A stretch of DNA of 64,000 bases from Cyanobacteria bacterium UBA3301 (GTDB taxonomy: Bacteria; Cyanobacteriota; Vampirovibrionia; Gastranaerophilales; Gastranaerophilaceae), in contig DESZ01000030.1 of NCBI GenBank assembly GCA_002361485.1, positions 510 through 64,509 of the forward strand, written 5' to 3'. The notes beneath the pieces are model-generated. The model was not told the origin of the DNA. It searched no databases and worked only from the letters and a program-made list of their open reading frames with translations. Both the position numbers and the translations under genes were made by a program. This document shows positions 3,608-39,184 of the stretch, piece after piece (position 1 is the first letter of the stretch; each line of letters starts with the position of its first letter).

Positions 3608-3681
3608 TCGGGATGACAGGATTTGAACCTGCGGCCCCTTCGTCCCGAACGAAGTGCGCTACCAAGCTGCGCTACATCCCG
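3608..3681 (-). tRNA. tRNA-Pro (anticodon CGG)
   Basis: The reverse complement folds as a full cloverleaf: CGGGATG TA GCGC AGCTTGGTA GCGC A CTTCG TTCGGGA CGAAG GGGCC GCAGG TTCAAAT CCTGT CATCCCG A. It is 74 nt with G37 and no encoded CCA. Confidence 0.92.
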
Positions 3682-3891
3682 ATATTTAGTTGTCAAGTTG
3701 AAAACTTTCGTTTTCAACGGTGCGCTACCACCTCTCGAAAAAACAATTCACCGGATTGTTTTTTCTCGGCAGAGTGCTACATCCCGATATTTAGTTGTCA
3801 AGTTGAAAACTTTCGTTTTCAAGGGTGCGCTACCATCTCTCGGAAAAACAATTCACCGGATTGTTTTTTCTCGGCAGAGTGCTACATCCCG
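3671..3891 (-). repeat. 105-bp tandem repeat (2 full units plus an 11-nt third start) beginning with the 5' end of tRNA-Pro
   Basis: The plus-strand string gctacatcccg occurs at 3671, 3776 and 3881, an exact 105-bp period. The two full units differ at only 3 positions. Confidence 0.95.
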
Positions 3892-3963: not shown

Positions 3964-3972
3964 ATTATACCA
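3964..3972 (-). promoter_or_regulatory. candidate extended -10 promoter element (TGGTATAAT) for the repeat plus tRNA-Pro transcript
   Basis: The minus strand reads TGGTATAAT, matching TGnTATAAT, directly after the fadD-like stop and about 70 nt upstream of the outermost pseudo-5' end. Confidence 0.4.
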
Positions 3973-3982
3973 CCAACAAAAT

Positions 3983-5665
3983 TTATTTTCCACATTCTGC
4001 CAAAAGAGCTTTAACTTCTTTGCGTTTTACTTTGCTGGTTGCGGTTCTCGGCAAACCGGTTTGTCTTACCACAATGTTAATCGGACGTTTATATGACGCT
4101 AATTGTAATGACAAACTTTTTACTTCTTTATGAACCGCGGTTTCAACTTCATCAAAGTTTGAATAAGAATTGATGACTTCTTCTGTCGGAACAATCACGG
4201 CAACAATTTCTTCACAACCGTCTTTTTCTCCGCCTGCTTTCGGCATACCGACAACACAGACTTCCGCAAATTTATCACTTTGCTGTAATACTGTTTCAAC
4301 TTCTTCAGGGAATACTTTCTTACCGCCTGATAAAACTATCATATTCTTAATTCTACCTGTTATATATAATAATCCATTGCGGATTTCTGCGATATCACCT
4401 GTATGAAACCAACCGTCAGCTTCTAAAACTTCGTCAGTCAAATCTTGTCTGCCATAATAACCTTTCATAACTGATGGCCCTTTAACTAACAATTCTCCTG
4501 TTTCGGAATCGATTTTTGCTTCATAAGAATCTAAAATAGGTCCAACAGAACGCATATTATCCTGATTTGGATTATTACACATTGAAACAACCGGACTTGT
4601 TTCTGATAATCCGTAACCCTGGAATATTCTTACACCGATTCTTTTAAACCATGCGCCCACAATAGGATCTAACGGCGCACCACCCGAAATGTACCCGAAG
4701 AAATGTTTTCCGTATAATCGGTGAATTGTTCTAAACATTAATCTTCTGATATAAAAAGGCATAAATGCCGCCAAATGATATTTTATATTAAATATCATTT
4801 TGTACATTGCTGATTTTTTACTTATTTCCGATTCAAAATACGATTTTAAAAGCTTCAAAAACGCAGGAACCGTAACCATAAAACGAATTTTCTTTTCCTG
4901 CATAATGTCTAAAATATCTTTCGGTTTTAAACTGCTTGTATAATATACGGAATATCCGTGAGTCAACATTGTGAAAAACCCAACGGTCATTTCAAATAAA
5001 TGATTCATAGGCAATATCGACAACAAACGCATTTCTTTATTTTTAGGCATCATGCTTTTTAATACTTTGCGCATACCATACATTTGAGCAAGCATATTTT
5101 TGTATGTAGTTTGAACACCTTTTGGTGCACCTGTTGTACCTGAAGTATAAATAATCAATGCCGTATCATGCAAAGGTCTTCTGCGCCATTTTGCACTATA
5201 ATTCGCAGGGATTGAATACAAACTCGGAGTATTTTCACATTCGTATTCAGATGCTTCCATCAAAATTATATGTTTTATAGACGGAATTTTGGACTGTAAT
5301 TCCTGTGCTTTTTTATAATTTTTGCTTGATGTCATCAATACTGTCGGTTCACAACTTGATAATATTGATGTCAATTCATATATTGTTAATTTATTATCCA
5401 AAGGAACAATAGTTAACCCTGCCAACACAGAGCCAAATACGCAAACACCATATTCAGGTAAAGATTCTGAGAGTATCGCCAATTTCTCGCCTTTTGGGAT
5501 TTGTAAATCATTTATCAGATATGCACCCAGGCGTTCTGCTAACAAGCTCAAACCTTTATATGTAAATTCATTCCAGCCCCATAAAGTTTTCATGCCTAAT
5601 GCAACTTTTTTTTGGTTTGTCGCAGTTGTTTTTTCTAATAATGAAAATATGCTCTCGTATTTCAT
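3983..5665 (-). CDS. fadD: AMP-dependent acyl-CoA synthetase (long-chain fatty acid-CoA ligase-like)
   Basis: AMP-binding signature IIYTSGTTGAPKGV, plus GYGLSETSP, WFHTGD and a C-terminal PRTATSKVKR motif. 560 aa. Confidence 0.85.
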   Translation of the reverse strand: MKYESIFSLLEKTTATNQKKVALGMKTLWGWNEFTYKGLSLLAERLGAYLINDLQIPKGEKLAILSESLPEYGVCVFGSVLAGLTIVPLDNKLTIYELTSILSSCEPTVLMTSSKNYKKAQELQSKIPSIKHIILMEASEYECENTPSLYSIPANYSAKWRRRPLHDTALIIYTSGTTGAPKGVQTTYKNMLAQMYGMRKVLKSMMPKNKEMRLLSILPMNHLFEMTVGFFTMLTHGYSVYYTSSLKPKDILDIMQEKKIRFMVTVPAFLKLLKSYFESEISKKSAMYKMIFNIKYHLAAFMPFYIRRLMFRTIHRLYGKHFFGYISGGAPLDPIVGAWFKRIGVRIFQGYGLSETSPVVSMCNNPNQDNMRSVGPILDSYEAKIDSETGELLVKGPSVMKGYYGRQDLTDEVLEADGWFHTGDIAEIRNGLLYITGRIKNMIVLSGGKKVFPEEVETVLQQSDKFAEVCVVGMPKAGGEKDGCEEIVAVIVPTEEVINSYSNFDEVETAVHKEVKSLSLQLASYKRPINIVVRQTGLPRTATSKVKRKEVKALLAECGK

Positions 5666-15780: not shown

Positions 15781-16182
15781 TTATTCTGCTTTTTGAGATT
15801 TATCTTTTTTGGTAAATAGACTTTTTATTCCTTTAAATAAACCGGAGAATACATTACCGATGAATTTTCCGACAGGTTTTAGAACCCCATTCCAAATGAA
15901 TTTTCCGACAGGTTTTAAAACACCGTTCCATATAAATTTTCCGACAGGCTTTAGAACTCCGTTCCATACAGCTGTTGCCGCTGTTCCGATTGCATGCCTA
16001 ATTTTTGGAGAACCGATAATTATTCCTGCGGCTATTCCTGTCAAAGCTCCATAGGTAGCATCTTTTGACCAGATAGAACCCATTCCGTAACCGCAGCATG
16101 GCCCGCCCATCATCATAGGCGGAGGCGGACAGCAAAACCCGCCGTTTGTATATATATTTGTTTGTTTAATATATAATGACAT
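15781..16182 (-). CDS. small Cys/Met/Gly-rich protein with three tandem 12-aa repeats (WNGVLKPVGKFI)
   Basis: 133-aa ORF. The three 36-bp DNA repeats differ only at synonymous sites, so the peptide repeat is under selection. Also has a glycine-zipper hydrophobic segment (YGALTGIAAGIIIGSP). Confidence 0.7.
   Translation of the reverse strand: MSLYIKQTNIYTNGGFCCPPPPMMMGGPCCGYGMGSIWSKDATYGALTGIAAGIIIGSPKIRHAIGTAATAVWNGVLKPVGKFIWNGVLKPVGKFIWNGVLKPVGKFIGNVFSGLFKGIKSLFTKKDKSQKAE
15863..15970 (-). repeat. 3 x 36-bp in-frame tandem repeat inside CDS 15781..16182
   Basis: aattttccgacagg... recurs at 15863, 15899 and 15935. Differences are AAT/AAC, GGG/GGT/GGA, CTA/TTA and AAA/AAG, all synonymous. 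Confidence 0.95.
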
Positions 16183-38344: not shown

Positions 38345-38616
38345 AAAGTTGGTAGGGTAGACTTCAGTCTACCAAATATCTTGAAATGGTTGACTAAAGT
38401 CAACCCTACTTTTTAGTGCAATTTTGGGGACAAAAGGGTGCAAAAAGAGGACATTTCTGCTACTGAAATCGGACATTTAGGACATTTTTAATCAAGTAAC
38501 TTCCGACCTTTATAAATTGGCAAAAACTGGATTGCTTCGGGCTTTCGCCCTTGCAAAGACATGAAACTCTTCCGACCAAATGTCCTGATAAAAGGTAGTG
38601 GAGTTCTCAAACAGCG

Positions 38617-38665
38617 CTCAAACAAAGTAATAGCCTCTTCGGGAAACACCCAAAGAGGCTATTAC
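38617..38665 (-). terminator. intrinsic terminator directly after tRNA-Leu
   Basis: GTAATAGCCTCTT / AAGAGGCTATTAC form a 13-bp stem abutting the tRNA 3' end, followed on the minus strand by TTTGTTTG. Confidence 0.75.
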
Positions 38666-38744
38666 TGGGCATGAAGAGACTCGAACTCCCACGCTTTCGC
38701 ACTAGTTCCTAAGACTAGCGTGTCTACCATTCCACCACATGCCC
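38666..38744 (-). tRNA. tRNA-Leu (anticodon UAG), class II with long variable arm
   Basis: The reverse complement folds as GGGCATG TG GTG GAATGGTAGA CAC G CTAGT CTTAGGA ACTAG TGCGAAAGCGT GGGAG TTCGAGT CTCTT CATGCCC A. 79 nt, no encoded CCA, T-stem has two G-U pairs. Confidence 0.88.
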
Positions 38745-39047
38745 ATATTTAATTGTCAATATTCTGGTCATTCCTGCGCCTCGCCTTAAACGCCACCGCC
38801 TCCAATTAGTCGGAATATCCATTACCGACATAATTGTCGGTCTCTCCGCTAATGCTCCGTGGCTCTGCTCGGCTTGCACCACATGCCCATATTTAATTGT
38901 CAATATTCTGGTCATTCCTGCGCCTCGCCTTAAACGCCACCGCCTCCAATTAATCGGAATATACATTACCGACATAATTGTCGGTCTCTCCGCTAACGCT
39001 CCGCGGCTCTGCTCGGCTTGCACCACATGCCCATATTTAATTGTCAA
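38733..39047 (-). repeat. 144-bp tandem repeat (2 full units plus a 27-nt third start) beginning with the 5' end of tRNA-Leu
   Basis: caccacatgcccatatttaattgtcaa occurs at 38733, 38877 and 39021, an exact 144-bp period. The two full units differ at 4 positions. Confidence 0.95.
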
Positions 39048-39184
39048 ATTGGAGCAAAACTCCATATATCTAAATTATTATAAGCCAAACAACATGTCAA
39101 GGATTAATATTTTTTTATTTTAGGCAATTTTTTTATACAAAAATACTTTATATAAATATAGGGGAAAATAGAAAGGGAAAATTC

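Follow-up and report, generated by a model that had tools for sequence, protein, structure and literature searches.

The nearest known analogue of the elements described here is the set of rtT repeats in the tyrT operon of Escherichia coli. In E. coli K-12, three 178-base-pair (bp) units follow tyrV, and the tyrV-adjacent copy overlaps the 3' end of the tRNA in the reference sequence. Each unit restarts with an end piece of the tRNA of about 19 nucleotides (nt). According to one study, the rtT RNA is a product that takes part in processing the tyrT transcript (10.1101/2024.07.17.603846). Integrative elements that target tRNA genes span kilobases (kb) and use a tyrosine integrase, either their own or a borrowed one; the part of the tRNA that they duplicate is almost always the 3' one. 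Non-canonical introns of archaeal tRNAs occur in the D- and T-loops. In Caldiarchaeum, a 5' fragment of tRNA-Thr lies upstream of the tRNA gene and a 1.8-kb element carries a recombinase gene (Sugahara et al. 2012, PMC3293823); the population-level heterogeneity was ascribed to a mobile element (PMC3293823). The present study concerns an array of 144-bp units 5' of the tRNA-Leu(UAG) gene in a stretch of 64,000 nt (the window) from contig DESZ01000030.1 of Cyanobacteria bacterium UBA3301.

The units are read here as tandem copies of a non-coding core of about 103 nt, termed type A. This core belongs to a family of small structured elements, specific to one lineage and nested in tRNA transcription units; the elements would be transcribed with the pre-tRNA, spread as copies and change in number by recombination. 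This reading is given an even chance of being correct. At the level of sequence comparison, the data establish that such a family exists and leaves the tRNA undisrupted; its elements are apparently selected for their fold on the transcribed strand, turn over quickly and appear to have moved between contexts.

Layout and fold of the tRNA-Leu(UAG) array

A 15-nt leader box, TTGACAATTAAATAT, followed directly by GGGCATGTGGTG, which is nt 1–12 of tRNA-Leu(UAG), occurs three times on the minus strand (39047–39021, 38903–38877 and 38759–38733) with a period of exactly 144 bp. The 30-nt repeat family holding both sequences lies at 38730–38759, 38874–38903 and 39018–39047 (spacing 144/144), and Tandem Repeats Finder reports 2.2 copies of a 144-bp period with 97% matches at 38733–39047, confirming the periodicity given in the initial annotation. 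The third occurrence (box at 38745–38759, immediately 5' of the mature tRNA) continues into the intact tRNA-Leu(UAG) at 38666–38744, in which CCA is not encoded. The first two (boxes at 39033–39047 and 38889–38903, tRNA fragments at 39021–39032 and 38877–38888) run on into a 117-nt segment each. This segment is made up of a 103-nt core (distal, 38918–39020; proximal, 38774–38876) and a 14-nt tail (GAATGACCAGAATA in the distal unit, 38904–38917; 38760–38773 in the proximal one). The tail GAATGACCAGAATA resembles a degenerate acceptor 3' strand, but not significantly so. All these features, and those of the tRNA-Pro array described below, are on the minus strand.

The 117-nt segment has a G+C content of 53%, against 33.9% in the whole window, and the two units are identical except at four of their 144 positions (44, 51, 85 and 95), both as first annotated. 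The differences are all structure-neutral, two being located in loops and two exchanging a G.U with a Watson-Crick pair. Since a unit consists of core, tail, box and tRNA nt 1–12, its insertion or duplication after nt 12 leaves the tRNA gene and its leader intact, so that the tRNA restarts after each module. The junction between tRNA-derived and module sequence, placed earlier in the D-arm, holds there at both tRNA loci of the window.

Units composed of tRNA nt 1–12, a type A core (starting with CAAGCCGAGCAGAG and ending with GGCGUUUAAKGCGAGGCGCAG), a short tail and the box are carried by the window and by the related loci L001, L002, L004, L006, L010, L018 and L040. Comparison of nine cores gave a common architecture. 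Helix P-a (UGC-AA-GCC with GGC-GCA) is followed by a tandem G.A motif, a GC/GC step and an internal loop with AGAG opposite GUUUAAK; then come P-b (GCCRC with GUGGC) and a three-way junction with the short hairpin P-c, an invariant GGAGAG and the long hairpin P-d, which is flanked by tandem G.A as well. The distal core of the window has all of these helices (P-a and P-b, with P-c and P-d at the three-way junction), and its conserved loops are GAGCAGAG, GGAGAG and CGUUUAAGGCGA. A covariance model built from the nine cores (R1) and run on 324 kb of window and related sequence found 15 copies. The window holds just the two known ones, matched at 38911–39028 (134 bits, expectation value (E) 1e-32) and 38767–38884 (138 bits, E 1e-33).

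In the R1 alignment, 94.1% of the cells are standard pairs and 22 of the 28 pairs show compensatory changes; none of 500 shuffles reached the observed values, and slid controls paired at 28–45%. Several compensations can be seen by eye, independently of the model fit: GCC/GGC to ACC/GGU, GCCAC/GUGGC to GGCAU/GUGCC, GUCGG/CCGAY to GCCAA/UUGGC, and GACCUGU/ACAGGUC versus GAAUUUUUU/AAAAAAUUC. G.U exceeds A.C by 8 to 2, and the sense (tRNA) strand folds 10.8 kcal/mol better than the antisense strand, the sense strand being favoured in 13 of 13 cores. The earlier proposal that the G+C-rich segment is a structured RNA element is thus supported by both covariation and sense-strand folding, and the conservation on which it depended was found, the core of about 103 nt being present in more than ten related genomes. 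The unpaired and junction nucleotides are strongly conserved, and the invariant junction makes the core a candidate protein-binding, ligand-binding or catalytic RNA.

The perfect hairpin CCGACA-ATTA-TGTCGG pointed out in the initial annotation exists but is not the conserved fold. It rivals P-d in energy and is unconserved, and the comparative data favour the pairing CAAUUA-U-GUCGG/CCGAY-UAAUUG, with compensatory changes in 11 of 11 pairs. As the true fold or as a terminator it was rejected, being unconserved in L004, L010 and L040 and flagged in one copy only. Minimum-energy folding of the whole 445-nt precursor was uninformative because the identical units pair together.

A candidate sigma-70-type promoter of the whole array lies at 39072–39100, with the TTGACA -35 sequence at 39095–39100, as annotated at the outset, and a -10 sequence that may be TAATTT at 39072–39077 (17-nt spacer) or TATAAT at 39077–39082 (12-nt spacer). 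It scored under the threshold of a consensus promoter scan. In the module-free L015, a matching TTGACA...TATAATAATTT arrangement precedes tRNA-Leu. An intrinsic-terminator-like hairpin at 38626–38666 abuts the tRNA; its stem has 18 pairs followed by UUUGUUU, not the 13 bp stated previously. Between the promoter-like site and the tRNA there is a single terminator-like match, which is weak and not conserved, so that co-transcription of the array with the tRNA is the natural reading. With promoter-like site, array and tRNA on one strand, the suggestion of a single tRNA-Leu precursor containing the modules is supported in that sense.

The box itself occurs exactly at only five sites in the window, namely the three places at tRNA-Leu and two unit junctions of tRNA-Pro; with up to two mismatches there are seven matches against 1.9 expected, a number reached in none of 100 shuffles. 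In a scan of one genome per species, it was found directly 5' of tRNA-Leu in 15 species representatives. The 15 species having the box with tRNA nt 1–12 are nearly all labelled Candidatus Gastranaerophilales, including Clostridium sp. CAG:768. Gastranaerophilales, to which the window is assigned as chromosomal DNA, is an order of Melainabacteria, the neighbour group of cyanobacteria, and the family is regarded as lineage-specific to it. In L007, L009, L011 and L015, which are module-free, the box nonetheless abuts tRNA-Leu. A role of the box as a promoter was rejected since the module-free L009 has TTGACA-17-TAAATT 22 nt upstream of the box and since no -10 sequence lies at a workable distance from the box; in module-free species the box is transcribed leader, 3' of TTGACA-17-TAAATT. 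At tRNA-Pro and tRNA-Val, the native leader 5' of the first fragment lacks the box, which occurs only at module 3' ends.

Related units, turnover and a proposed mechanism

A second class of unit, type B, forms the tRNA-Pro(CGG) array of the window, in which Tandem Repeats Finder located two 105-bp units at 3682–3891, directly 5' of the tRNA at 3608–3681. An extended -10 promoter-like site (TGGAAA-17-TATAAT with a preceding TG) lies 5' of the array at 3964–3992. Each unit consists of tRNA nt 1–11, a hairpin element P1 (ACUCUGCCGA-hairpin-GAGAGG), the 3' part of the D-loop GGTAGCGCAC, a tetraloop hairpin and the box; the first fragment retains its native leader without a box, and covariance-model matches are at 3720–3786 and 3825–3891. 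In type B generally, the 3' part of the D-loop is that of the cognate tRNA (GGUAGACACGC in Leu, GGUAGCGCAC in Pro) and the second, tetraloop hairpin is variable. Compared with the proximal Pro unit, the distal one has three changes, each of which damages the fold: the P1 hairpin contains an A.C, GAGAGG has become GAGAGA, and the closing pair of its second hairpin is broken.

The P1 covariance model gave 50 strong matches. Among 43 distinct sequences, seven of the eight pairs of the P1 hairpin showed compensatory changes, and in 40 of 43 the sense strand was the more stable, by 4.3 kcal/mol. A type B pattern that ignores the tRNA found 24 metagenome loci. Type B units were found 5' of tRNA-Leu(UAG) (in two lineages), tRNA-Pro(CGG) and tRNA-Val(GAC), and at one non-tRNA site. 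The occurrence of P1 at nt 11/12 of four different tRNA genes, each with cognate flanks, cannot be due to vertical inheritance. As to a kink-turn, GA...GA flanks the P1 hairpin in all copies; the C-stem register works only with a 5x1 loop or with a bulge of 4 nt, and no variation is seen in the outer helix. In the second tRNA-Leu(UAG) lineage (L036, 11516–11990), three type B units each have their own near-consensus promoter, TTGACA-17-TAAAAT, the -35 sequence being the 3' arm of the second hairpin of the unit, and in this lineage each module could be transcribed separately.

The Leu and Pro modules, first described as unrelated, do belong to different classes, but they have the box and a GCCGAG motif in common and elsewhere share one array. 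In L006, with flanks close to those of the window, and in L040, the order is A, A, B, tRNA, and L010 is a chimera with an A core within a B frame. Restart modules of other kinds precede tRNA-Arg(CCG) and tRNA-Leu(CAG) (L027 3397–3600, minus strand; L042 7330–7552). The Arg module has an 18-nt fragment and an AT-rich insert, and tRNA-Leu(CAG) has two modules, one of which has a UUGAGUA-loop hairpin resembling type B. The apical loop UURAGU(A) recurs across module types, for example in L008, L010, L040 and L042: P1 of type B has it, as do the Leu(CAG) module and, where P-d of type A takes its long form (CGUUGAGUUUUCG), that hairpin too. It may mark a shared binding partner.

The initial annotation raised the question of whether the element is always linked to a tRNA; it is not, and it is not always 5' of one either. 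Modules downstream of tRNA-Leu were found in L001, L012, L019, L029, L031, L034, L040 and L043. These 3' modules begin with a terminator and GAGAACUCC-hairpin-GGAGUUCGAG, the 5' half of the T-stem and T-loop, and continue with an A-like core, AAGRCAG, UCUCUUCAUGCCCA (tRNA nt 60–76) and a second terminator. In the window, a stub at 38598–38608, GAGAACTCCAC, corresponds to the first 11 nt of such a module, which is complete in related genomes and is cut off here by another small inserted element. At non-tRNA sites, L021 has a core in the loop of a REP-like hairpin, the sister copies of which are uninterrupted, and in L046 a core follows a terminator-like hairpin that has no tRNA closer than 1.5 kb. 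Nesting of cores was seen in L010, L012 and L043. The A1 core of the 5' module of L018 and that of the T-loop 3' module of L043 are identical at 99 of 100 positions, and their flanks have only tRNA in common.

Further observations concern these surroundings. The 3' module of L001 is 190 bp long (2430–2620) and ends in a second GAGTCTCTTCATGCCC; L001 also has genes for a Stealth CR1-4 protein and an HTH protein at 568–2317, where the window has a 141-amino-acid (aa) open reading frame without a Pfam match. The element that interrupts the stub in the window is non-coding, about 250 bp long and located directly 3' of the tRNA-Leu terminator (38350–38597, minus strand). It includes GGACATTT at 38578–38585, three copies of AAATGTCC at 38449–38487 and a 23-nt inverted repeat at 38352–38409. 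Its homologues are found 3' of tRNA-Leu in L004, L010 and L040 and at an island edge in L045; that of L040 is about 330 bp long and has a 35-bp direct repeat on both flanks. The REP-like hairpins (GTCATTCCG...CGGAATC) of L021 (6990–7448) and L042 (100–260) form tandem units of about 150 bp, with an A-like core in one loop.

Copy number varies over short distances. L001 and L002 encode a CHAP protein identical to that of the window and hence appear to be of the same species; L002 has two units, as does the window, and L001 has one. The single unit of L001 is a chimera, following copy 1 at variant sites 1–3 and copy 2 at site 4, which is what unequal crossover between the units would give. Within flanks about 98% identical, one clean 101-nt type B unit is found in L017 and L039 and is missing from L009 and L011. 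In the filled allele, the upstream and the tRNA-proximal box differ at 3 of 15 positions, which hints that the unit arrived with its own box. In L040, an A5-to-G change in the acceptor stem of the tRNA is present in every module fragment, indicating concerted evolution, and the most upstream tRNA fragments are frequently mutated in nt 1–6. Public assemblies break or hold runs of N within arrays (L003 1–30; L004 3948–4057), L003 terminating within the repeat, so public copy numbers are likely underestimates; gene callers annotate open reading frames over the arrays (L002 2540–2863).

Taken together, the proposed sequence of events is as follows. The array would be transcribed as the 5' leader of pre-tRNA-Leu from the promoter-like site ahead of it, and RNase P cleavage at tRNA +1 would free a structured leader RNA, the fold of which is conserved, covarying and favoured on the tRNA-sense strand. 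Unit number shifts by unequal recombination between units, and genomes that are otherwise nearly identical differ by a whole unit. One core is found in D-arm, T-loop and non-tRNA hairpin contexts. The element may spread as a copy landing in hairpin loops, chiefly those of the D- and T-arms of tRNA genes; the intermediate would probably be RNA or single-stranded, with the fold playing a part, and the enzyme would be encoded elsewhere. It would be accessory or selfish and not needed for tRNA maturation, as is favoured by its high turnover and non-tRNA copies. A more far-reaching version is put forward tentatively and is considered rather improbable, though less so than any of the rivals discussed below: that mobile structured RNAs of a new class, intron- or ribozyme-like or dependent on a new enzyme, are represented by the type A and B cores. 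Such an RNA would copy itself into the loops of hairpin-forming genes, especially tRNA D- and T-loops, and would carry or regenerate the displaced tRNA segment, so that the host gene survives.

Several points weigh against the reading of the units as nested, spreading RNA elements. Pair counts came from model-fitted alignments, which are biased towards structure, and the A1 cores represent only about eight independent lineages. The loci were gathered by tRNA- or box-anchored patterns in genome and metagenome scans, so that tRNA linkage is over-sampled. An acceptor-like helix, P0, pairing tRNA nt 1–10 with the unit tail, would make each unit a substrate of RNase P but is unsupported, being no better than shuffles in three of four lineages and beating them in one. 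The 3' modules lie behind a terminator and would be made only by read-through, and the 99% identity between the L018 and L043 cores could reflect strong constraint and not recent movement. No candidate enzyme was found; nothing obvious was seen in the lists of open reading frames round six arrays, for which Pfam was not searched. We know of no mechanism that inserts 100-nt elements into hairpin loops with restoration of the target, and co-transcription, release by RNase P and a function at the RNA level are inferred from the sequences.

If the reading holds, two well-supported structured RNA folds are added, from an uncultured human- and rumen-gut lineage sister to cyanobacteria, and bacterial tRNA genes can gather nested, non-disruptive inserts on both sides, which bears on the origin of split and interrupted tRNA genes. 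It would also offer a tractable case for the movement of a non-coding 100-nt element, with filled and empty alleles, one- and two-copy strains, and one core in three contexts. As a mobile RNA class, the elements would parallel in bacteria the disruption of tRNA genes in archaea, by a mechanism that has not been described before.

The window genes near the array are ordinary chromosomal ones, for an SNF transporter, the CHAP-domain protein, CoaE, a pseudouridine synthase and an acyl-CoA ligase. Elsewhere in the window, Tandem Repeats Finder reports a 36-bp repeat at 15860–15966 (3.0 copies, 88% matches), which overlaps an open reading frame at 15781–16182.

Alternative explanations

The best surviving alternative, though an unlikely one, is that the modules are cis-acting regulators or decoys of tRNA maturation that tune the output of minor tRNAs. 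Copies of the 5' strand in the leader, and in type B also of the D-loop, would compete with the true 5' strand in pairing to the 3' strand of the tRNA, or would titrate away a factor binding the cognate tRNA, with the core binding a protein or ligand that sets the outcome. Such a role would account for fragments that are cognate-specific and evolve in concert with the tRNA, as seen with the acceptor-stem change of L040, for the constant leader location and sense orientation of the restart modules, and for conserved unpaired nucleotides of the kind known from ligand- and protein-binding RNAs. The genome is moreover AT-rich, and the tRNAs with restart modules (Leu-UAG, Leu-CAG, Pro-CGG, Arg-CCG and Val-GAC) are all readers of codons that end in G or C; this restriction to minor tRNAs, together with the cognate specificity, keeps the decoy role alive. 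It fits poorly with the presence or absence of whole units in near-identical genomes, with copy number that varies beside an identical CHAP protein and with the frequent mutation of nt 1–6 in the most upstream fragments; the core occurs also in 3' trailers behind terminators and at non-tRNA sites, and type A units have no visible expression platform.

Marginally less probable is the view that the units are DNA-level cassettes, that is, miniature integrative elements or remnants placed by a site-specific recombinase acting on tRNA genes, possibly with folded single-stranded att-like sites. The tRNA pieces would be att duplications and the arrays tandem accretions. Restoration of the target gene is a hallmark of elements integrating in tRNA genes, and here a 27-bp repeat (box and nt 1–12) flanks each 117-nt insert with the tRNA intact. 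The 3' modules end in tRNA nt 60–76, hence in the tRNA 3' end like an attR, and carry their own terminator. Arrays contain mixed unit types, and the tRNA-Leu locus is an integration hot spot (the island of L045, the window element at 38350–38597, and the 35-bp direct repeat of L040). However, no integrase-sized open reading frame with obvious similarity was seen by inspection beside the arrays, and the units, at 100–190 bp, are too short to encode an integrase. The 5' side and the D-arm are unusual targets, and in L010 and the 3' modules tRNA sequence stands on both sides of the core inside the loop, which simple att duplication does not yield. The cassette model explains target restoration; it does not explain a strongly strand-asymmetric fold with G.U pairs or conserved unpaired motifs that are central and not terminal.

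With regard to a miniature inverted-repeat transposable element or insertion sequence, P-a forms an imperfect terminal inverted repeat; yet the core has a three-way junction, and the duplicated target is variable, from 26 to about 60 bp. An integron attC site was rejected, the one GTTTAAC-/GTTAAAC-like motif being unpaired in an internal loop and without a partner box; no intI was seen, although no search aimed at intI was made. Inspection by eye for bulge-helix-bulge junctions, attC boxes and Xer/dif-like sites gave no consistent match. In blastn searches, phage matches were confined to the tRNA part and there was no plasmid match, and pattern scans of viral contigs for type A and type B gave none. 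A CRISPR array was rejected, the 'spacers' being 97% identical to each other, as were ToxI-like repeats of a type III toxin-antitoxin system, since a tRNA and a terminator follow the array and the neighbours vary among genomes.

More doubtful still is an array of processed small RNAs, in which cleavage by RNase P at each box/G junction, or self-cleavage by a new ribozyme, would give 144-nt trans-acting RNAs. Each unit border is an exact replica of the tRNA leader with its RNase P site, the invariant junction nucleotides are of ribozyme or aptamer grade, and the rtT RNA of the analogous tyrT operon has been described as a product involved in processing of its transcript (10.1101/2024.07.17.603846). 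On the other hand, the acceptor-like closing helix is unsupported, type B units have no 3' acceptor-like strand, and no known self-cleaving ribozyme model matched at E up to 10. Scans with Rfam 15 at gathering and permissive thresholds of the window, the array and ten related loci returned tRNAs only; self-cleaving ribozymes, group I introns, T-boxes and riboswitches were absent at E up to 10 in the array and up to 1 in seven related loci. Nor are the modules pseudo-tRNAs, as ARAGORN and the Rfam tRNA model (RF00005) picked out just the two complete tRNAs and called no module, even at E up to 10. The Rfam RtT model had no match in any scan of the window or related loci, and literature searches gave no description of these modules, which are thus uncatalogued: their fold has no Rfam family and no description in the literature searched.

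Passive tandem duplication of the leader and tRNA 5' end with junk filler is rejected as highly improbable. One unit in L001 against two in the window and L002, the crossover chimera of L001 and the three fold-damaging changes of the distal tRNA-Pro unit are what it would produce, and the variable copy number that had been named as its sign was indeed found. The filler, however, is conserved in more than ten genomes, its helices are changed by compensatory substitutions and it occurs also in other contexts; cross-species conservation of the core rules out a merely passive process. Finally, a repetitive small protein is rejected as scarcely conceivable, even though an open reading frame (38724–39065, minus strand, 113 aa) is open across both units, 144 bp being 48 codons, and a gene caller gave a 107-aa product on L002: the 143-bp period of the L018 array does not allow a reading frame to persist, L001 has a single unit, substitutions track base pairs and not codons, an exact look-up of the 113-aa sequence found nothing on record, and the DNA-traced ones (L006, L043–L046) of only five matches among 5.8 billion proteins overlie RNA-like cores in differing contexts.

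Comparison with known systems

T-boxes, tmRNA and the Y RNA-like YrlA are, like the present modules, structured RNAs tied to one tRNA or borrowing tRNA parts, and tandem G.A and T-loop-like motifs may be present in both. No Rfam match to T-box, tmRNA or Y-RNA-like models was obtained, however, and the tRNA pieces here are identical and not complementary to the tRNA, and the elements lie in the tRNA's own leader.

The disrupted tRNA genes of archaea resemble this locus in having a 5' tRNA fragment and insertions at D-loop and T-loop (59/60) positions. They are spliced by the bulge-helix-bulge endonuclease, whereas the host here is a bacterium in which the complete tRNA has no interruption, and inspection of the junctions showed no evident bulge-helix-bulge motif.

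As with integrative elements targeting tRNA genes, the target tRNA stays intact because the displaced segment comes with the element, the insert is flanked by directly repeated tRNA ends, and several inserts can stack at one tRNA. The modules differ in having units of 100–190 bp, mostly on the 5' side, with a covarying strand-specific fold and with tRNA sequence on both sides of the core.

The likeness to tyrT/rtT (rttR; Rfam RtT) lies in tandem non-coding units that abut a tRNA gene, each with a terminal piece of the tRNA, and the function of which is poorly understood. The E. coli units are co-transcribed with the tRNA, as is inferred here. They have no similarity in sequence or structure to the present elements and are found on the 3' side only, at one locus and in Enterobacteria, whereas the family described here comprises at least two structured classes on both sides of several tRNA species, at D- and T-loop positions and in non-tRNA hairpins.

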